In this document: positions 1 to 7,686 of the stretch, in pieces | How the letters are laid out: each line of letters starts with the position of its first letter | Numbering within the stretch: position 1 is the stretch's first letter | From: a virus | Taxonomy: Duplodnaviria; Heunggongvirae; Uroviricota; Caudoviricetes | Virus record (IMG/VR): IMGVR_UViG_2541047934_000011 | Length of the DNA: 7,686 bases | Direction: 5' to 3' (one strand) | Program-made: the position numbers and the translations under genes | Notes under the pieces: generated by a model | Seen by the model: only the letters and a program-made list of their open reading frames with translations | Told to the model about the DNA's origin: nothing | Databases searched by the model: none

Positions 1-91
1 TAGACTGGCCCCCTGAATCTCCAGACAACCAGTATCACTTATTTAAGTGATAGTCTTAATACTAGTTTTTAGACTAGTCATTGGAGAGCAG

Positions 92-457
92 ATGATTGAT
101 GTCTTAGGACCGGAGAAACGCAGACGGCGTACCACACAGGAAAAGATCGCAATTGTTCAGCAGAGCTTTGAACCGGGGATGACGGTCTCCCTCGTTGCCC
201 GGCAACATGGTGTAGCAGCCAGCCAGTTATTTCTCTGGCGTAAGCAATACCAGGAAGGAAGTCTTACTGCTGTCGCCGCCGGAGAACAGGTTGTTCCTGC
301 CTCTGAACTTGCTGCCGCCATGAAGCAGATTAAAGAACTCCAGCGCCTGCTCGGCAAGAAAACGATGGAAAATGAACTCCTCAAAGAAGCCGTTGAATAT
401 GGACGGGCAAAAAAGTGGATAGCGCACGCGCCCTTATTGCCCGGGGATGGGGAGTAA
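92..457 (+). CDS. insC: IS2 transposase OrfA (InsC), HTH DNA-binding protein, 121 aa
   Basis: ATG at 92 preceded by GGAGAG (83..88). Translation [26 protein letters not shown]...PLLPGDGE is recognised as IS2 InsC. The ORF-track start at 47 is an upstream in-frame GTG extension and is unlikely to be used. Confidence 0.9.
409..415 (+). other. Programmed -1 ribosomal frameshift slippery heptamer A_AAA_AAG joining OrfA to OrfB
   Basis: AAAAAAG sits in the insC zero frame (gca aaa aag tgg = A K K W), and insD is in the -1 frame from here. IS3-family elements including IS2 make the OrfAB transposase by -1 frameshifting at A6G. Confidence 0.75.
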
Positions 458-1320: not shown

Positions 1321-1544
1321 GGGCAAATCCATTAACACATAAGCAATCAGTATGATTGGTTAGGTGATTACTCTTACTGCGCACAGCGCAATAGATTTCT
1401 TCGTGGGCGTTACCGCCAACGAAGTTACACGAAGAAAGTAACGCTTTGCTTTCGGTGTGAGCGGAACGGGCCAGCCACGAAGCCCGAAAGGTAGCGGAGT
1501 AAGGCTGCTTGCCAGAGAGTGAAGCTAACGCCGGAAGGCAAAAG

Positions 1545-1625
1545 ATCATATATATAGATATAAAGAATATTATTATTATGATCTAATTAATAATCTAATA
1601 TAGTTTTATTAATAGTCTTATTGTA
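1545..1625. other. Near-pure A/T tract (DNA-unwinding-element-like), bracketed by the 8-bp inverted repeat AGATCATA / TATGATCT
   Basis: About 80 bp of almost exclusively A/T immediately after a GC-richer segment (1340..1545). Inverted repeat AGATCATA at about 1543..1550 and TATGATCT at about 1578..1585. No coding potential. Confidence 0.5.
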
Positions 1626-1628
1626 GTT

Positions 1629-1664
1629 CACAGTGACCTACCCCCTAGCTCACTATGACCTACC
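1629..1664 (+). repeat. Two direct copies of CAC(A/T)(G/A)TGACCTACC spaced 22 bp
   Basis: cacagtgacctacc at 1629..1642 and cactatgacctacc at 1651..1664 (12 of 14 identical). Confidence 0.8.
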
Positions 1665-1694
1665 GTTACTACCAATCATCACATAGCACTCACT

Positions 1695-2474
1695 CTGTGT
1701 AATGCCTTTCTATGTGTGTGCCATAATCCCCTATATTCCCTGTGTAAATCATAGAATATCCCTAACTTATTCCTGTGTAATTCCATACTAAAAATTCAAT
1801 GAAAAGTAGCTTAAAAGTGCAATTCTTACTTTCTTCACTTTTACATCACTTTCGCAAATCCTTGTGTAGTGCGGCCTACAGAGCACCATCAGAAATTGTT
1901 GGCTAAAAATTGTTCTGCTTGTTTCTTAACGAGTTTTCTCGTTTGTGCAAATTTTAAAATTTATTTTGTTTTTACAGCCTTATTTCGTGTAATGCGTGGC
2001 ATAGCAAGCCCTTTTCTTGTGTTGTCAAGACATTTGGCAACGTTCAAACATCTGTTTAGAAATGCCAAATTGTTGATCTAACAAATAAACCTGTATAAAC
2101 AGAACACCATTTAATCTATTCCCCTGTGTAATCCACTACATCACACAATAAAAACAAAAAAACCTTTAATTATGTTTCATAGCATACAAAAGTCAACAGA
2201 AGCCCTCTCGTGCTCCTACGTAAAAAATCCATCATTTTCCCCTGATACATCAACTCAAGGCGTTCTATGTGTTCCTTAGTGCATATTACGTTTATTATGT
2301 TAAATTGATTTTGGCCTATATTTTGACCTGCACCCGCATAAACACTGGTTTCATCGCTTACAGTCCTTGTGAGACGTGGTGCTGTTTCTAGCATCTGATC
2401 CGACATAAAACCGATCATTCTCGTGTTTAGTGAAAGTTTAGTGAGAGACATTACAGAAAGGCTTTCTGTGTAAT
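1695..2474 (+). repeat. Dispersed same-orientation motif CTGTGTAAT (5 exact copies plus close variants) in AT-rich non-coding DNA
   Basis: Exact CTGTGTAAT at 1695..1703, 1773..1781, 2124..2132 and 2466..2474, and CTGTGTAAA at 1740..1748. Variants TCGTGTAAT at 1985..1993, TATGTGTGTG at about 1711..1720 and TTGTGTAGT at about 1862..1870. All are on the + strand. A 9-mer recurring this often in under 1 kb is far above chance. Confidence 0.85.
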
Positions 2475-2610
2475 GATTTAATAGGTAAAAACGATGTTGA
2501 TTACGCAAGAAAATTCCTTGCTGATATTTGGGGATTCTGGATTTTCCAGATCGGGGGGCGCTGAAAATCGCGTTAAGCACCTCTCGCAATCTAGCCATAA
2601 GGGAAGGGAT

Positions 2611-2675
2611 ATAGGTATTTAGATGTATTTATAGCTATTTATGGCTATTTATTTTTTATTTACCTTTATTTAAAA
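2611..2675. other. Phased T-tracts with 10-bp periodicity (intrinsically curved DNA)
   Basis: ataggTATTT agatgTATTT atagcTATTT atggcTATTT attttTTATT taccTTTATT: TATTT recurs every 10 bp, i.e. helically phased A/T tracts, a signature of bent DNA at promoters or origins and of H-NS-bound DNA. Confidence 0.7.
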
Positions 2676-2741
2676 ATAACCTTATAAATCAATAAGATAC
2701 ACAACTATCTGTTTATATTTTAATCAATTAAATCAAGTTTA

Positions 2742-2780
2742 ATACCCTTAAATCACCTGAAAATACCCTTAAATACCCCA
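2742..2780 (+). repeat. Direct repeats ATACCCTTAAAT with 21-bp spacing, plus a third partial copy ATACCCCA (iteron-like)
   Basis: ATACCCTTAAAT at 2742..2753 and 2763..2774 (exact, 21 bp apart), then ATACCCCA at 2773..2780. Confidence 0.8.
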
Positions 2781-2942
2781 ATAATTAATTTTAAGGTTTT
2801 CCGTGTTCTCTTCTGCATTATGAAAATGCAAAATAAGGCACAAAACAAGCGCACAGACGCATTAAACACACATCACCTATACATCCCTATACCAAGCAAT
2901 GAAAATAGCGTTAGAATGCGTCCTGTTGCGTTCTGGAGATTT

Positions 2943-3101
2943 TCAGAAATCCTCTCTAAGCCATTTCAACTCATTAAGGAGTTTTCTTTCTTCGTTCTCT
3001 CTCTGTTTACGCTCTAGCCAGGCTTTTCCTTCTGGCGTAGACAGGAACTTACGAGCGTGAATCTTGCGGTTATTACGTTTGATAGCTGCAATGTTTTTCA
3101 T
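2943..3101 (-). CDS. Small basic hypothetical protein, 52 aa (not in the supplied ORF track)
   Basis: Minus-strand ATG at 3101..3099 preceded by AGAGG with 6-nt spacing (...atacAGAGGcacacgATG). Translation MKNIAAIKRNNRKIHARKFLSTPEGKAWLERKQRENEERKLLNELKWLREDF, stop TGA at 2945..2943. Lys/Arg-rich, no hydrophobic segment. It overlaps the +-strand ORF 2820..3017, which has no RBS. Confidence 0.4.
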   Translation of the reverse strand: MKNIAAIKRNNRKIHARKFLSTPEGKAWLERKQRENEERKLLNELKWLREDF

Positions 3102-3923
3102 CGTGTGCCTCTGTATTCATATGAAAATTAACAAGTTACATACTACACAGGGAGACTACGCATAAAACACAATACAAGTAAAGATACATTTTCAAGACAA
3201 TAGGAGCCATAAAGCGCCTTTGATGGGCTACCCCAAAAAATAAGCGCCGTAGGCGTATCCACTAAAAGGGCTTTTTCACAAAAGCTATGAAGTCTTAGCA
3301 GTTCTTCTCTTATCAGGCACCCGTTGTACTCCGGTGGACGAAACCGTGCTAGAGCTTGATTCTTTCCCGATCAAGTTAGGTTTTGAAGAGGTGGGCTTTG
3401 ATCCACTATTGCACTTAAAACTCTTCCCATCATTTAGCCTGTTTATCCTCTGCAACGTCTCACGACGTGTAGCATCATTGGACACCGCGCCAGGTGTGGA
3501 ACATCTTGCTAAGAGTTTTGGTAGAAGGTTTAGAGACGGTGGCACGTCTTCCAGCTTCAAAGGAACTTGTTACGAGGTTGAGCCTGGGAACTACTCGCCC
3601 ATACGTGTTACACTACCAAAGCCCATAACAACGTATAGGCGTTTGTAAGTGATAACAGAAGATACAATTTCTTAGAGAAGTTAAGCTAAGTTATTGATTT
3701 TCTTGATTGTGCGATAATAGGAACAATACACATAGGCGATAAGCTTTGTTTTTGTTGCCTTTTTTATTGTTCATTTTTTATAGATACCCCCAAAAGTACC
3801 CCCATATCTTTTTCCGCCCCTGAAATTTGGTTGTTATTCATACAGCATATCAGGCGGTAACGCTCTCCCTTTAACCCACTTATTGTATGATAGTGCTATC
3901 CCACAATAAGGAATCAGCCAGCC

Positions 3924-4283
3924 ATGAGAATGACCAGCCGCAAAAAAGAGATACTTAGCTACTTTGAACCGGATAACCTCGAATGGGTGACTGGTGAGAT
4001 TGGTGCGCCGCCGTTCGATGTGTCGGGTGTGGCCTACCTGCTTCATGGCATGGTGTCGTTCGATAAGCGTCACCAGCTCGAATCAACCCGGCGCACACTG
4101 GAAAGCATGGTTGCTGGTGGACTGCTTGAGCGGGTGACAGTGTATGAATCGCGCCAGATACGGCGCGGCGGTGATACTAACGCAACGGTCGTGCGCTACG
4201 GTTTACCCGGTCAGTGCGCTGTTATGCGCGATACTGGCGGCGCTGACAACGCAATATCAGGTGAATACATGCGGGTCAGTTAA
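3924..4283 (+). CDS. Hypothetical protein, 119 aa (possible small winged-helix-like DNA-binding protein)
   Basis: ATG at 3924 with AAGGA about 11 nt upstream. GC-richer, E. coli-like codon usage. Translation MRMTSRKKEILSYFEPDNLEWVTGEIG... is not recognised as a known family. The 3' end overlaps the convergent pRiA4b-ORF3-like gene by 8 bp. Confidence 0.5.
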   Translation: MRMTSRKKEILSYFEPDNLEWVTGEIGAPPFDVSGVAYLLHGMVSFDKRHQLESTRRTLESMVAGGLLERVTVYESRQIRRGGDTNATVVRYGLPGQCAVMRDTGGADNAISGEYMRVS

Positions 4284-4818
4284 TAGCCTGCAATCTGTCG
4301 TTGATGCGGCTCAGGTCGTAAACCCGGCGTTCAATATCCAGCATCAGGAAATTGTGGATCTCGGCCTGCTCAGGATTATCAGACTCTCTGGCCTGTAATA
4401 GCAATTCATTGTAACCATGCAAGCCGCCTGAGTTTTCCGCCGGGGTGGTGCCTTTCCCACGCAGGCAGCTAATGGGCTGATTACTCGTATCGTGTGTTTG
4501 CTTCTCCAGCACAATGACGCAATCCCACCAGTCGCCAAAGTCATACGTGTAAACCAGCTTGTCACCCTCATTCTGGAGCGCCGCCCATAGTGGCGTGATT
4601 GCCGCGTTACCCATGCTTTCATCCTCACCCCATACGCGATACTCGCTACCTGGATCACCTTTACGCCCTTTCTCGAACATATACAGGTGTTCGTCATTCC
4701 AGCCAAAAGCTAACTGGATCACGGCATGAAGTTTACTAAAGGGGATTTGCTCTGGAACCAGCACACGCCGCCATATAGGTGGTTTGCTGTCTCGGATGGT
4801 TATCTTTAGCTGGTACAT
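4276..4818 (-). CDS. Plasmid pRiA4b ORF-3-like family protein (Pfam PRiA4_ORF3 / MM3350-like domain), 180 aa, function unknown
   Basis: N-terminus MYQLKITIRDSKPPIWRRVLVPEQIPFSKLHAVIQLAFGWNDEHLYMF carries the signature of the pRiA4b ORF-3-like family (Y.LK.TL.D..PPIWRR..VP...F..LH..IQ...GW...HL..F). ATG at 4818, weak SD (AGGA 8 nt upstream). Confidence 0.8.
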   Translation of the reverse strand: MYQLKITIRDSKPPIWRRVLVPEQIPFSKLHAVIQLAFGWNDEHLYMFEKGRKGDPGSEYRVWGEDESMGNAAITPLWAALQNEGDKLVYTYDFGDWWDCVIVLEKQTHDTSNQPISCLRGKGTTPAENSGGLHGYNELLLQARESDNPEQAEIHNFLMLDIERRVYDLSRINDRLQAIN

Positions 4819-4938
4819 GCAAATCCTGAATAAATGCGAATCGGAAGGATAACGATACTGACGTACTCACAATTCTGTAAAGGTGAATAAAGGAAATTTG
4901 CTTAATACGCATAAGTTACATGTGGAATAATCCCATAT

Positions 4939-5124
4939 CTACCTGCGCGGCGCTGGCTTCTTCCACTGGTAGGCAGGTGCTCGCATCATTTCGCGGAACC
5001 TGTCGCGCCGGGCTATATCGGCATTAACTGATCGTTCTATCTCCCGTTGATCTGCCTGTGTAAGCTGGTGGCCTCCGTGCTCAAGTTTGGCGATGGTCAA
5101 TAAGGCTATTTCGCGTGGTGTCAT
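4939..5124 (-). CDS. Small hypothetical protein, 61 aa
   Basis: ATG at 5124..5122 preceded by GAGGG at 8-nt spacing (ccaGAGGGtatgacgtATG). Translation MTPREIALLTIAKLEHGGHQLTQADQREIERSVNADIARRDRFREMMRAPAYQWKKPAPRR. Co-oriented between the PerC-like and pRiA4b-like genes. Confidence 0.45.
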   Translation of the reverse strand: MTPREIALLTIAKLEHGGHQLTQADQREIERSVNADIARRDRFREMMRAPAYQWKKPAPRR

Positions 5125-5350
5125 ACGTCATACCCTCTGGAAGAATGAAACACGCCCGGATTAAATTTCATTTTTCGCGGGTATAAAAAAACGATGGGGC
5201 GGGCAGTCCCGGATAGTCAGGGCTGTAGAGATTTGACTACCCCCTCCCCACTGGATTCAGGTTACTGCTATTCCGTTAAGCGCTGCTTACGGGGATAGCT
5301 GCGTTGTGATTTTGACCATTCAGGTCGCCGCTATTTCCTCACCGATTGGG

Positions 5351-5373
5351 TGCTACGCGCGCGCGTACTTGTC
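5351..5373 (+). repeat. Repeat family copy a: TGCTA(CG)5TACTTGTC, containing the 14-bp palindrome TACGCGCGCGCGTA
   Basis: tgctacgcgcgcgcgtacttgtc, followed by CCGAAATACCAG. Near-identical to copy b at 6761..6781 apart from one extra CG unit. Lies in the intergenic region downstream of the PerC-like gene. Confidence 0.85.
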
Positions 5374-5395
5374 CCGAAATACCAGAAACCGCCAG

Positions 5396-5417
5396 CCAGA
5401 GGATGATTTCCCTCTGG
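5396..5417 (-). terminator. Candidate intrinsic terminator hairpin downstream of the PerC-like gene
   Basis: On the minus strand: CCAGAGG-gaaatcat-CCTCTGG (7-bp stem, 8-nt loop) starting 5 nt after the stop (5424..5422), followed by a moderately T-rich tail (ctggcggTTTcTggTaTTTcgg). Not a canonical U-run, so weak. Confidence 0.3.
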
Positions 5418-5421
5418 TGGT

Positions 5422-5703
5422 CTACCTTTGCCTCTTGCCGCCATTTAACCGGAAGGCGTTACCGTTCGGTTGCGCTATCCCCATGCGGTGTTGCGTTTCG
5501 GTAACAGCTTTATGCAGGTCGCCAAATTCCTCAACCTTCACGGGCGGGCGCTTCACGTTCTCCAGACACGTTTCACGGCGGCGCTTTATCCATTCCCGAT
5601 CATCGTCCTCGGTGCATAACAGCATGACTTCCATCCATCGTGCGGCAGCTCTCCGGTATAGCCCTTTTGACTCCAGCTCTTCAGCTTTCCTGTCCCTTAT
5701 CAT
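5422..5703 (-). CDS. PerC-family (Pch-like) transcriptional regulator, 93 aa
   Basis: ATG at 5703..5701 with strong SD GAGAGG (5714..5709). Translation MIRDRKAEELESKGLYRRAAARWMEVM...REWIKRRRETCLE... carries the conserved PerC-family core (AE.LE.KGL.RRAA.RW..VM) recalled from EPEC PerC and EHEC Pch proteins. Confidence 0.75.
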   Translation of the reverse strand: MIRDRKAEELESKGLYRRAAARWMEVMLLCTEDDDREWIKRRRETCLENVKRPPVKVEEFGDLHKAVTETQHRMGIAQPNGNAFRLNGGKRQR

Positions 5704-5708
5704 TTCTG

Positions 5709-5722
5709 CCTCTCAGATTATA
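5709..5722 (-). promoter_or_regulatory. Candidate sigma70 -10 element (TATAAT) and SD for the PerC-like gene, abutting the tandem repeat array
   Basis: Minus-strand reading: ...tgaaccaacacctttttgcttatctaTATAATctGAGAGGcagaaATG. Perfect TATAAT at 5722..5717, and the position of a -35 would fall on the first repeat unit. The leader would be very short. Confidence 0.4.
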
Positions 5723-5739
5723 TAGATAAGCAAAAAGGT

Positions 5740-5784
5740 GTTGGTTCAGTTGGTTCAGTTGGTTCAGTTGGTTCAGTTGGTTCA
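5740..5784 (+). repeat. Five perfect head-to-tail copies of the 9-bp unit GTTGGTTCA (iteron- or operator-like array)
   Basis: Exact tandem units at 5740..5748, 5749..5757, 5758..5766, 5767..5775 and 5776..5784, followed by a 43-bp AT-rich spacer. Confidence 0.95.
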
Positions 5785-5827
5785 ATTTGTAAAGATTGTT
5801 GTTTTTATTGTGTTTTTTCTGAAATAT

Positions 5828-5878
5828 TGAACCAACATCAACTCATTTTGAACCAACACAGCCCAGCTCTGAACCAAC
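5828..5878 (-). repeat. Three inverted-orientation copies of the same unit (TGAACCAAC on the + strand) phased exactly 21 bp apart
   Basis: TGAACCAACA at 5828, 5849 and 5870. Each begins a 21-bp unit (tgaaccaacatcaactcattt / tgaaccaacacagcccagctc / tgaaccaacaacacagcgata), so copies sit two helical turns apart on the same DNA face. Confidence 0.95.
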
Positions 5879-5931
5879 AACACAGCGATAGATTTGTGAT
5901 TGGTCCGTTATTTTCTGGCTGATATTTGAGC

Positions 5932-5948
5932 GTATAACAGTGTTATAC
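5932..5948. promoter_or_regulatory. 17-bp palindrome GTATAACA-g-TGTTATAC (operator-like) overlapping a candidate extended -10 upstream of the RHH gene
   Basis: Perfect inverted 8-bp arms around a central G, followed by GTATAC at 5954..5959. TGTTATAC resembles an extended -10 (TGnTATAc). Located 33 to 49 bp upstream of the ATG at 5981. Confidence 0.4.
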
Positions 5949-5980
5949 AGTGGTATACTGTATGGATATTACTCACTGAT

Positions 5981-6436
5981 ATGGTCTTTGCAATGAGCAA
6001 ATCTAATCTGGTCGCGTTCCGCATCCCATCTGAATTGCAGGATGAGTTTAATCGGTCTGTTCTCGCTTCTGGAGGAGATAAAACCTCCTGGCTTGTTGAT
6101 GCGATTCGCATGAAGCTGGGGCAGCCGGAAAAGTCTATTGATTCACGAATGCTTGGGCTGGTGGAGCGCATGGAAAAAGCCGCTGCGTCGCTTATTGCCG
6201 GAAAGCCGAACATCCCACCAAAACCATATAACGAAACGGCAGTTATAAAGATCATTGCCGATACCATCCAACAGGGATTTGATAATGGGCGTGTGATAGC
6301 TGAACGGATCAATGAAGCAGGCTATCAAACAAAAGCTGGTAAAGCGTGGGATAAAGATATTTACAGCGCGTGGAAGCGTCAGGGAAGCAATGCTGAAAAG
6401 CTAAAAGCAGTGATTGATTGTAAGGTCAGCGTATAA
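5981..6436 (+). CDS. Ribbon-helix-helix (Arc/MetJ/CopG-like) DNA-binding protein with a C-terminal extension of about 100 aa, 151 aa (147 aa if the ATG at 5993 is used)
   Basis: From the second ATG: MSKSNLVAFRIPSELQDEFNRSVLASGGDKTSWLVDAIRMKLG fits the RHH pattern (beta-strand with alternating hydrophobics and R.P.EL, helix A, G.[ST] N-cap turn, helix B). Neither ATG has an obvious SD, so the start is uncertain. Stop TAA at 6434..6436. Confidence 0.6.
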   Translation: MVFAMSKSNLVAFRIPSELQDEFNRSVLASGGDKTSWLVDAIRMKLGQPEKSIDSRMLGLVERMEKAAASLIAGKPNIPPKPYNETAVIKIIADTIQQGFDNGRVIAERINEAGYQTKAGKAWDKDIYSAWKRQGSNAEKLKAVIDCKVSV

Positions 6437-6515
6437 ACATGAGTGCCCATTGGAAAGTTGCTTGGGCCAATACCTTTATACACCAGCAGGTAGTGACGAT
6501 AGGTGAGGATCAGAT

Positions 6516-6737
6516 ATGAAAGGCAGAACGCCACACATTGAACATCAAGCCAACCACTTCCCTGATGTTCGCAATGAGATGATTGCCATTCGCGGTGATA
6601 TGCACGGATTGGAGCGTCGAATTATTGATAAGATTGATGAAAATAGAGATAAGGCCAGTGAAAATCAAAAGTGGATCATCGGCCTGTTGATTTTATCAAT
6701 TCTTATCCCGCTACTTATCGCATTGGTCACAAAATGA
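6516..6737 (+). CDS. XhlA-like (hemolysin XhlA family) small tail-anchored membrane protein, 73 aa
   Basis: Strong SD GGTGAGGA (6502..6509) 6 nt before the ATG. Predicted coiled-coil N-terminus and a single C-terminal hydrophobic helix (WIIGLLILSILIPLLIALV). The ENQKW motif just before the transmembrane segment recalls the XhlA family of phage lysis-associated proteins. Confidence 0.6.
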   Translation: MKGRTPHIEHQANHFPDVRNEMIAIRGDMHGLERRIIDKIDENRDKASENQKWIIGLLILSILIPLLIALVTK

Positions 6738-6760
6738 ATATCCAATGTGTATGCTGTCGA

Positions 6761-6781
6761 TGCTACGCGCGCGTACTTGTC
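6761..6781 (+). repeat. Repeat family copy b: TGCTA(CG)4TACTTGTC, containing the 12-bp palindrome TACGCGCGCGTA
   Basis: tgctacgcgcgcgtacttgtc, followed by GCAAAATATCAG. Matches copy a over about 35 bp with one fewer CG unit and a few substitutions. Lies 24 bp downstream of the XhlA-like stop. Confidence 0.85.
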
Positions 6782-6998
6782 GCAAAATATCAGGCAAAGG
6801 CCAGATTCAGAAAGTCGTGATAACCACCAGCACAACATGAGAGGTCATGTAACGCGATTTATCACACCAGATACATGTGATTGGTGTACCCGCATAAAAC
6901 ATCGTCATAGCGCGTCCTGTGCGCATATACGCCGATAATCAACACATCACCACCACTCTGTCTCATGTAGAGAACAGTTTTATGGTATCCCCCGCCAT

Positions 6999-7148
6999 CG
7001 TGTGCGTACTGGTCGGACGCAGTTGCAAAAAATTTTGCAACTGATACCCCTCGCGCGCGTACTGGTCACGAAATTGGTGTTTTGCTGTGGCAGTGATATC
7101 AGAAAAATCTTCCTGTTTCACATAAAGCGGATATGCGCGTACTGTAAC
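6999..7148 (+). promoter_or_regulatory. Repeat and palindrome cluster upstream of the 7259 gene: three more family copies plus an operator-like palindrome
   Basis: GTGTGCGTACTGGTC at 6999..7013; palindrome AGTTGCAAAA-aa-TTTTGCAACT at 7021..7042; TCGCGCGCGTACTGGTCACGAAAT at 7051..7074; TGCGCGTACTGTAAC at 7134..7148. All repeat copies are in the same orientation. Confidence 0.6.
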
Positions 7149-7258
7149 GGCCCCATCAACTGGGAGCGGACTTGAAATCCCGACCCAAGCTATGTACCAA
7201 ATGCCATGTCTTGGATATATGATGATTGCCATTCTAAACAACGCTAAAGGGGGTTGGT

Positions 7259-7537
7259 GTGAGCAGAAAAGATACTAAAGAATTGCTAACTATCTGCATG
7301 GTGTACTTTTCAATTTATTTTTGTGCATACATGATAGTCCCAGATGAGTTTGAACATGGCAGTATTATTTATTCCATAACATTCTATTTTTTAGAGCTAA
7401 CACCAATTTTGGCTATCCTTTTGGGAATACATATTTATTTTTCCTTAAAAAAAGAATCGACTAATTGGGAGAAGGTATGGAGAGACAGAGGATTTCTAAG
7501 GAAGGTGCGAATAAGCGGGGAAATTCTTCTCGGCTGA
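7259..7537 (+). pseudogene. Small AT-rich two-transmembrane-helix membrane protein gene interrupted by IS5 (native part 7259..7499, about 80 codons; the last 12 codons and the stop are IS5-encoded)
   Basis: GTG start at 7259 with SD AGGGGG 5 nt upstream. Two hydrophobic helices (LLTICMVYFSIYFCAYMIV and IIYSITFYFLELTPILAILLGIHIYFSL) then a charged tail. The reading frame runs across the IS5 junction at 7500, so the C-terminus ...RKVRISGEILLG is read from the IS5 terminal repeat. The original 3' end is unknown. Confidence 0.5.
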
Positions 7538-7686
7538 CTCAGTCATTTCATTTCTTCATGTTTGAGCCGATTTTTTCTCCCGTAAATGCCTTGAATCAGC
7601 CTATTTAGACCGTTTCTTCGCCATTTAAGGCGTTATCCCCAGTTTTTAGTGAGATCTCTCCCACTGACGTATCATTTGGTCCACCC
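7500..7686 (-). mobile_element. IS5, partial (first 187 bp of the element; the window ends inside it)
   Basis: GGAAGGTGCGAATAAGCGGGGAAATTCTTCTCGGCTGACTCAGTCATTTC... from 7500 matches the IS5 terminal inverted repeat and adjacent sequence as recalled. It is preceded by CTAA (7496..7499), which fits the known IS5 target preference C(T/A)A(G/A). The transposase is on the minus strand. Confidence 0.88.
7646..7686 (-). CDS. insH: IS5 transposase InsH, C-terminal fragment (5'-truncated by the window end)
   Basis: Minus-strand translation of 7684..7649 gives VDQMIRQWERSH followed by stop TAA (7648..7646). This matches the recalled InsH C-terminus ...ADQMIRQWERSH, with one A-to-V difference. Confidence 0.7.
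   Translation of the reverse strand, partial: VDQMIRQWERSH

Follow-up and report, generated by a model that had tools for sequence, protein, structure and literature searches.

Gene content of the locus

The window studied here is a stretch of 7,686 nucleotides (IMG/VR record IMGVR_UViG_2541047934_000011), and our subject is a run of three plus-strand open reading frames (ORFs) towards its right-hand end, the last of which is cut by an insertion sequence (IS). The window is E. coli DNA and is riddled with IS elements, with IS2 at 47-1320 and ISKpn26-like DNA of the IS5 family from 7500 on. ORF1, ORF2 and ORF3 encode, respectively, a probable DNA-binding regulator, a small protein with one hydrophobic segment at its C-terminus and the beginning of what is, by homology, a SieA-family superinfection-exclusion protein; all three lie where the original prediction, made from the letters of the sequence without database searches, had placed them (Table 1). 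In that prediction they formed a candidate undescribed membrane-targeting module, with an exclusion system named as one option, and it is to this option that the SieA homology described below points. We propose that the window is the accessory end of a phage-inducible chromosomal island (PICI) resembling EcCIMP1, and that it represents a satellite-borne, SieA-type block to DNA injection by P22-like phages which has been inactivated here by the ISKpn26-like element, a reading to which we assign a probability of about three in four.

A truncated gene of the SieA family

ORF3 is cut after codon 80 by an ISKpn26-like element of the IS5 family. In a megablast search of positions 5900-7686 against 5,426 complete E. 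coli genomes, 34 genomes match continuously and stop at base 7499, and the remaining sequence (7500-7686) is 100% identical to copies annotated as 'IS5-like element ISKpn26 family transposase', found at 13,222 places in E. coli genomes. The truncation by IS5-family DNA that had been proposed earlier is therefore confirmed. The junction reads TTTCTAA followed by GGAAGGTGCG, with CTAA as the target, the 4-bp target rule of the IS5 family being YTAR; a single IS end is present in the window, and the 4-bp target is observed at one side only. This particular insertion is carried by none of the 5,426 complete genomes. The IS5-free loci that the original prediction had recommended seeking for the native 3' end are provided by the 34 matching genomes, all of which carry an intact allele of 204 aa (L001, 16360-16974). 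In strain SCU-172, the intact gene occupies positions 1131059-1131673 of NZ_CP054353. The intact protein possesses four hydrophobic segments (residues 9-27, 36-57, 112-137 and 150-168, from hydropathy), of which the window copy retains the first two. The earlier picture of ORF3 as a small class II holin-like protein with two transmembrane (TM) helices and a charged tail is consequently an artefact of the truncation, which removes the two hydrophobic segments located after the IS site; no endolysin accompanies the intact gene in the loci examined.

The intact protein is similar to SieA of P22 (type A; BLASTP E = 8e-8, 29% identity over 108 aa) and to a protein of 212 aa encoded where sieA is expected in the E. 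coli prophage HS1 (E = 2e-9, 34% over 118 aa), which we take to be the active type-B SieA of Leavitt et al. (2024; PMC10883804). ORF3 also matches phrog_7745 ('SieA-like') with an E-value of 4e-4; for comparison, the same family is matched by a Citrobacter homologue at 2e-6, by P22 SieA at 9e-109 and by HS1 SieA at 6.5e-21. An exhaustive search with a hidden Markov model built as an ORF3 profile returned 42 proteins, every one of which is reciprocally similar to P22 and/or HS1 SieA, and the motifs YSSE..NRLSD and RYPG(E/Q)A are common to these 42 matches. SieA carries a cytoplasmic motif near its C-terminus, FxRYPxEAxxFNK (PMC10883804). At that site the intact ORF3 allele reads LTNRYPGEARRARK, in which the RYPxEA core is exact, F is replaced by T and FNK by ARK. 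Apart from overall homology and the two motifs (YSSE..NRLSD and RYPGEA), the intact protein shares with SieA of types A and B a predicted multi-pass topology and a similar size. SieA proteins have three or four TM segments, and the four hydrophobic segments seen here agree with the four TM sections predicted for type-B SieA (PMC10883804). Within the family, ORF3 and its close relatives, which are few, stand apart as a clade that divides into about five clusters at 50% identity and is less than 35% identical to types A and B.

The genomic neighbourhood points in the same direction as these comparisons. In the intact loci read in detail, the sieA-like gene is convergent with a gene for a gp16 homologue located about 20 bp away. 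This opposite-strand gene encodes a 701-aa protein that matches a PHROG 'DNA transfer protein' family (E = 4e-159) as well as the gene-16 proteins of Lederbergvirus phages; the gp20 of the island is 488 aa long. The sole relative at about 50% identity in our first homology search comes from Citrobacter freundii and lies inside a complete P22-like prophage, in the order tailspike, ant, arc, a mnt-type ribbon-helix-helix (RHH) gene, a 105-aa ORF, the sieA-like gene and, downstream and convergent with it, the gp16 gene. The Citrobacter homologue is thus located between genes 16 and 9 of a P22-like prophage, whereas the E. coli copies are not. Judging from these similarities, ORF3 is the front part of a SieA-family superinfection-exclusion gene. 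Missing from the window copy is the conserved C-terminal half, with YSSE..NRLSD, TM3, TM4 and NRYPGEA; since every conserved SieA motif is gone, we infer that this copy is inactive and its exclusion function lost.

Intact alleles are abundant. The assembly collection lists the gene in 794 blocks, all eight places sampled there have it intact, and so do those complete genomes that we read in detail. Given this abundance and the little effect that P22 SieA has on growth (PMC10883804), the earlier suggestion that the IS5 insertion reflects selection against a toxic product is not supported.

Searches of broader collections returned little. ORF1, ORF2 and the intact ORF3 had no match by tblastn in 50,697 phage genomes, and the link to P22 therefore comes from the neighbouring gp16 homologue and from the pairwise and profile comparisons. 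PADLOC gave no match for these proteins and NCBIfam only noise, P22 SieA itself being without an NCBIfam model. A Proteus P22-like phage, checked as a possible source of type-C SieA, has a lipoprotein in that slot instead.

Table 1. Features of the window. Positions refer to the window unless another of the compared loci (L) is named.
Feature	Position	Strand	Description
perC-family gene	5422-5703	-	divergent from ORF1; Pfam PerC, E = 4e-30
Double palindrome	5932-5963		overlapping GTATAACA-G-TGTTATAC (5932-5948) and ATACAGT-GGTAT-ACTGTAT (5945-5963)
ORF1	5981/5993-6436	+	start at 5993 in RefSeq and most homologues, giving 147 aa; 151 aa from 5981
ORF1 domains	residues ~5-47 and ~77-140		RHH-like; confident helical C-terminal domain, helix-turn-helix (HTH)-like
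ORF2	6516-6737	+	73 aa; N-terminal part helical, single TM at the C-terminus (residues 54-72); Shine-Dalgarno GGTGAGGA
Spacer	6738-7258		conserved, non-coding, satellite backbone; repeats, palindrome, Shine-Dalgarno and GTG start for the following cassette
Cassette slot	7259 on; L013 12493-12933; L020 8684-9079; L027 14632-15330		
ORF3	7259-7537	+	92 aa; frame continues into the IS
ORF3 remnant	7259-7499	+	codons 1-80 of a 204-aa sieA-family gene; TM1, TM2 and start of soluble loop
IS5-family element end (ISKpn26-like)	7500-7686		terminal 187 bp, extends past the window; CTAA target within ORF3

An EcCIMP1-like satellite with different cargo

The product of the perC-family gene in the window matches the PerC protein of E. 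coli strain MP1 (WP_000617443.1; tblastn against MP1, 100% over 93 aa), and the MP1 gene is the PerC-family gene of the PICI EcCIMP1 (PMC11773190). Positions 3706-5766 (2061 bp, comprising a 119-aa gene, a PRiA4_ORF3 gene, a 61-aa gene and perC) are 99.8% identical to EcCIMP1 of MP1, and a 430-bp stretch of the spacer between ORF2 and ORF3 is 97% identical to it. The cargo of MP1 is a different one: at the place where the window has ORF1-3, EcCIMP1 carries alpA_1 and a gene for a 232-aa lipoprotein, and the protein in the gp16 position is 906 aa long. Because of this near-identity to an island with other cargo, the window is best described, from its nucleotide sequence, as belonging to a satellite of the EcCIMP1 kind whose cargo is its own.

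The backbone is shared with EcCIMP1, and the sister islands have in common their integration at thrW, the primase and the homologues of the ejection proteins (E-proteins). Undamaged islands are arranged in the order thrW, integrase, HTH regulator, AntA/B, DUF4222, ash, TOPRIM/DUF927 primase, small ORFs, gp20 homologue and gp16 homologue; there follow, on the other strand and convergent with gp16, the sieA-like gene, the spacer, ORF2 and ORF1, with perC last. Sister islands by ligB also carry gp14 and gp7 homologues, and the island satellites encode several allelic types of the gp14, gp7, gp20 and gp16 homologues (L006, 13992-17563; L020, 9099-13631; L027, 15481-20649). In the sister loci, this backbone of integrase, AlpA-type regulator and primase is without capsid or lysis genes.

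EcCIMP1 itself is a PICI located between proA and yagU, and its excision and transduction occur only with the P22-like phage Kapi1 (PMC11773190). It adds superinfection immunity, and neither PADLOC nor DefenseFinder found anything in it (Pick, Stadel and Raivio 2025; PMC11773190). The sieA-like gene is excluded as the cause of this immunity, MP1 being without ORF1-3.

ORF1, a putative two-domain regulator

ORF1 has no Pfam match, nor does any of its 369 homologues (63-80% identity across Enterobacterales) contain a Pfam domain. The family, with proteins of about 143 aa, is present in Salmonella, Klebsiella, Serratia, Enterobacter, Pantoea and Erwinia, and is under strong purifying selection (ratio of nonsynonymous to synonymous substitution rates, dN/dS, of 0.06 against Salmonella). 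The N-terminus of ORF1 aligns in register with Mnt/Arc over residues 5-47 (hhalign E = 0.002; BLASTP against Mnt, E = 0.001), the AlphaFold2 (AF2) model has helices at 13-26 and 30-42 following an extended segment, and Foldseek yields weak RHH matches only. The earlier assignment of ORF1 to the RHH regulators is thus partly borne out, by the profile alignment and the fitting helices, but finds no echo in Pfam. ORF1 is probably a DNA-binding regulator composed of an RHH-like and an HTH-like domain.

The double palindrome lies 30-60 bp upstream of ORF1 and includes TGGTATACT, which resembles an extended -10 element. The ORF1 homologues of E. coli, Salmonella and Klebsiella are preceded by it too, and this conservation across three genera, while the remaining intergenic DNA differs, would fit a regulation of ORF1 by its own product; the double palindrome is likely to be the ORF1 operator and promoter.

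Between perC and ORF1, positions 5740-5878 hold an iteron-like array made of five tandem copies of GTTGGTTCA (5740-5784) and then three inverted copies of TGAACCAAC at 5828, 5849 and 5870, in a 21-bp phase. The same array, with three tandem copies, occurs in other E. coli islands and in a Salmonella island, its copy number being variable. It could be a satellite replication origin or a regulator-binding array.

In Salmonella and Klebsiella, ORF1 is found at the far end of islands that carry the TOPRIM/DUF927 primase and a large tape-measure-like protein, without ORF2 or sieA. Homologues of the 119-aa ORF (3924-4283) and of the 61-aa ORF (4939-5124, minus strand) of the window flank the ORF1 homologue of a Salmonella island, with 68% and 40% identity, respectively, albeit in a different order, which indicates a rearrangement of the far end of the island from one genus to another. 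In E. coli, the two ORFs are separated by a gene of the PRiA4_ORF3 family (4276-4818, minus strand).

ORF2, a small tail-anchored membrane protein

ORF2 contains one hydrophobic segment, at its C-terminus (hydropathy), and matches phrog_6324 (E = 5e-11). Its dN/dS of about 0.2 shows that it is a real gene. Only close homologues were found, all of them in E. coli. One of these, 82% identical, resides inside the mnt operon of genuine P22-like prophages. Next to arc, this operon runs from mnt through an ORF of 123 aa and the homologue of ORF2 to an ORF of 75/109 aa, and a gp16 gene convergent with it comes downstream.

ORF2 had originally been assigned to the XhlA family, whose members act in Bacillus PBSX-type lysis cassettes. 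It is of the same size class as XhlA, with a helical N-part, a single C-terminal TM and, just before that TM, a similar (D/N)K-x-(D/E)-EN-x-x-W motif. ORF2 and its homologues also match phrog_689, the 'holin' family matched by validated XhlA, with E-values of 3e-3 to 4e-5; a control sequence scored by Pfam as XhlA (80.8 bits) matches the same family at 8.5e-17. To this extent ORF2 resembles XhlA. On the other hand, the Pfam XhlA model PF10779 does not match ORF2 at E<=10, two ORF2 homologues score 19.1 and 16.1 bits against a gathering threshold of 34.7 bits, and hhalign aligns ORF2 with XhlA over 13 columns only, beside the TM. Unlike XhlA, moreover, ORF2 belongs to a lysogeny-expressed accessory operon rather than to a late lysis cassette, its host is Gram-negative and neither a holin nor an endolysin is encoded near it in the loci examined. 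ORF2 accordingly shows a resemblance to XhlA rather than membership of the family. The original prediction was right that this is no standard lysis cassette, as neither the window nor any intact locus that we examined has an endolysin or Rz gene.

Strain CP53 has a frameshift in ORF2, and several loci with the sieA-like gene have no ORF2 at all, which shows that the sieA-like gene can be present without it. ORF2 may be a second envelope-level accessory gene.

The spacer and the cassette slot

The spacer separating ORF2 from ORF3 belongs to the backbone of these islands: between the E. coli islands that we examined, EcCIMP1 among them, it (6757-7186; L027, 14099-14530) shows 96-98% identity throughout, whatever the flanking genes. 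The repeat and palindrome region noticed here originally is real. Same-strand repeats of the form GCGCGTACT(G/T)GTC are present at 6769, 7002 and 7055, with a weaker copy near 7134, and a perfect 11+11 palindrome, CAGTTGCAAAA-AA-TTTTGCAACTG, occupies positions 7020-7043. The sequence GCGCGTACTKGTC occurs four times on one strand of the window, three times within the spacer, versus 0.17 expected. A further exact copy of GCGCGTACTTGTC is located at 5361-5373, just downstream of perC and on the same strand as the spacer copies.

We considered and rejected the possibility that the spacer is a decayed gene: its ORFs have no Pfam match, and 1-bp indels between strains break every one of them, which is why we treat the region as non-coding. 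The sole PHROG match in the spacer is a weak one, of a 92-aa minus-strand ORF to phrog_30481 (E = 0.0036), and tblastn with the proteins of neighbouring islands and phages, as well as tblastx against all loci, produced self-type matches only. An origin, a packaging site or a promoter for the cassette are possible functions.

Different genes adjoin the same spacer on either side. On its 5' side, in combination with the sieA-like gene, we found ORF1 with ORF2, ORF1 with an M78 peptidase pair, or two unrelated genes; on its 3' side there can be the sieA-like gene, a gene for a four-TM protein of 131 aa or one for a secreted protein of 146 aa with a signal peptide (phrog_2651). In MP1, the gene beside the spacer is that of the 232-aa lipoprotein, on the other strand. 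The cassette swap in CP53 begins exactly at the GTG start codon. The slot after the spacer looks like a hotspot for envelope-acting accessory genes.

Elsewhere in the window, the region between IS2 and the 119-aa ORF (1335-3700) is AT-rich (30-40% GC), and in other strains its place is taken by genes with Abi family, Panacea domain or recombinase annotations; this looks like another variable cargo region at the island end. Rfam and tRNA scans of the window returned nothing meaningful.

Independence of the three genes and comparison with P22

ORF1, ORF2 and ORF3, grouped as a candidate module in the original prediction, are not an obligate one: in a comparison of 35 loci and related genomes, each of them occurs without the other two. 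ORF1 is found alone in Salmonella and Klebsiella, ORF2 in P22-like prophages, and ORF3 among E. coli loci and in Citrobacter.

Nor is the arrangement an undescribed one, since the layout is that of the mnt-orf59a-sieA arm of P22 beside gene 16, and the island is an EcCIMP1-like PICI. In P22, gene 16 is followed by sieA on the opposite strand, a gap containing PsieA, orf59a and mnt, and the window locus has the same order and orientation; as in P22, the sieA gene of the ORF3 type comes after a regulator and a small ORF, and lies immediately downstream of gene 16 and convergent with it. A further link to the left arm of P22 immI is provided by the ORF2 homologues that occupy the mnt operon in E. 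coli P22-like prophages. The correspondence is one of layout more than of individual genes: ORF1 is twice the size of Mnt, to which its similarity is marginal, and has an extra HTH-like domain, ORF2 is unrelated to orf59a, and perC and further genes of the island stand where P22 has arc, ant and the tailspike gene.

Proposed function and alternative explanations

The SieA proteins of P22 and HS1 reside in the inner membrane and prevent P22-like phages from injecting their DNA, and the mutations by which phages escape them map to the C-terminal regions of gp16 and gp20 (PMC10883804). The two SieA types tested exclude phages with very different E-proteins alike (PMC10883804). By homology with these proteins, the following scheme can be proposed. 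The satellite would be mobilised by P22-like podoviruses and would carry its own copies of P22 ejection-protein genes, in a layout that may be seen as mirroring the left arm of P22 immI, with a regulator, a small ORF, a spacer with its own signals, sieA and a convergent gene 16. ORF1 would repress its own promoter through the double palindrome, this promoter driving both ORF1 and ORF2. The intact 204-aa, four-TM protein would most likely reside in the inner membrane, where it would keep P22-like phages that arrive at the cell from assembling the gp20/gp16 conduit for DNA delivery or from using it.

Several observations weigh against this scheme. With the SieA proteins that have been tested, the ORF3 type shares only 29-34% identity, and this over no more than the C-terminal half (110-120 residues), and the FNK of the published motif reads ARK in it; the ORF3 type forms its own clade. 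The E. coli copies sit in primase-bearing PICIs without a tailspike gene and not in P22-like prophages, whereas every sieA-like gene examined in detail by Leavitt et al. is in a P22-like prophage (PMC10883804). The sole member of the island family to have been tested, EcCIMP1 of MP1, is without ORF1, ORF2 and the sieA-like gene. In addition, the RHH assignment of ORF1 relies on weak scores, and a scan of positions 5650-7500 for consensus promoters and terminators found none.

Another origin for the locus would be the immI/sieA end of an ordinary P22-like prophage that was once integrated at thrW and has decayed, no satellite being involved. The presence of gp16, gp20 and sieA homologues, integration at thrW and the richness of the window in IS elements are all compatible with such an origin, which we nevertheless consider improbable, as many strains have an island of this compact build (int, AlpA-type HTH, ash, primase, E-proteins, cassette, PerC) with its genes intact, either at thrW or at a second chromosomal site, beside ligB. 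It has no coat, portal, terminase, tailspike or lysis genes, and is partly near-identical to EcCIMP1, which is excised and transduced only with a helper (PMC11773190).

The sieA-like protein might alternatively serve the life cycle of the satellite itself, for example by deciding, together with the satellite's own gp16/gp20 alleles, which particles deliver DNA. The sieA-like type is invariably accompanied by one gp16 type, of 701 aa (94-100% identity within E. coli and 73% for Citrobacter), the gp16 types differ in islands that have another cassette, and escape from SieA maps to gp16 and gp20 (PMC10883804). The pairing may, however, be the mere linkage of neighbours; CP53 keeps a 94%-identical gp16 with a different cassette, and both tested SieA types excluded phages irrespective of their E-proteins (PMC10883804). 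We regard such a role as quite improbable.

A membrane-disrupting module of an abortive-infection, toxin or holin-like kind, with ORF1 as repressor, ORF2 as XhlA-like partner, ORF3 as two-TM effector and the IS5 insertion selected by toxicity, is very improbable: the weak XhlA Pfam (16-19 bits) and PHROG 'holin' matches of ORF2 and its homologues, the membrane character of both ORF2 and ORF3 and the lack of a nearby endolysin would suit it, but ORF3 is a fragment of a 204-aa four-TM SieA homologue whose intact form is common and conserved, each of the three genes is found without the others, growth is hardly affected by P22 SieA (PMC10883804), PADLOC is empty, and the XhlA scores lie far under the curated cut-off, with hhalign reduced to 13 columns beside the TM.

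If the preferred reading of a satellite-borne, SieA-type block is correct, it can be extended into a 'lock and private key', in which the blocker of the satellite would be paired with its own matched gp16 and gp20, so that particles equipped with the satellite proteins could enter while helper-type or competing P22-like phages would be shut out, the slot swapping exclusion genes at a shared start codon behind the 0.5-kb spacer. We offer this extension as a speculation and think it unlikely.

Biological significance

SieA is among the oldest known superinfection-exclusion functions. Its action at the inner membrane, as a block on the gp16/gp20 conduit, was worked out in 2024, when homologues were known from P22-like prophages only (PMC10883804). 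The locus analysed here shows a divergent SieA sequence type, putatively a fourth one beside types A, B and C, travelling on PICI satellites of P22-like phages in E. coli, with the sieA-like gene directly beside satellite-borne copies of the very proteins that SieA targets. As its own copy is probably dead, the window serves above all to direct attention to the intact alleles. These are a concrete candidate for a protection against P22-like phages that a satellite would confer, one that deserves attention since PADLOC detected nothing in these proteins, just as PADLOC and DefenseFinder detected nothing in EcCIMP1 (PMC11773190). The locus also marks a slot for the exchange of exclusion-type genes.

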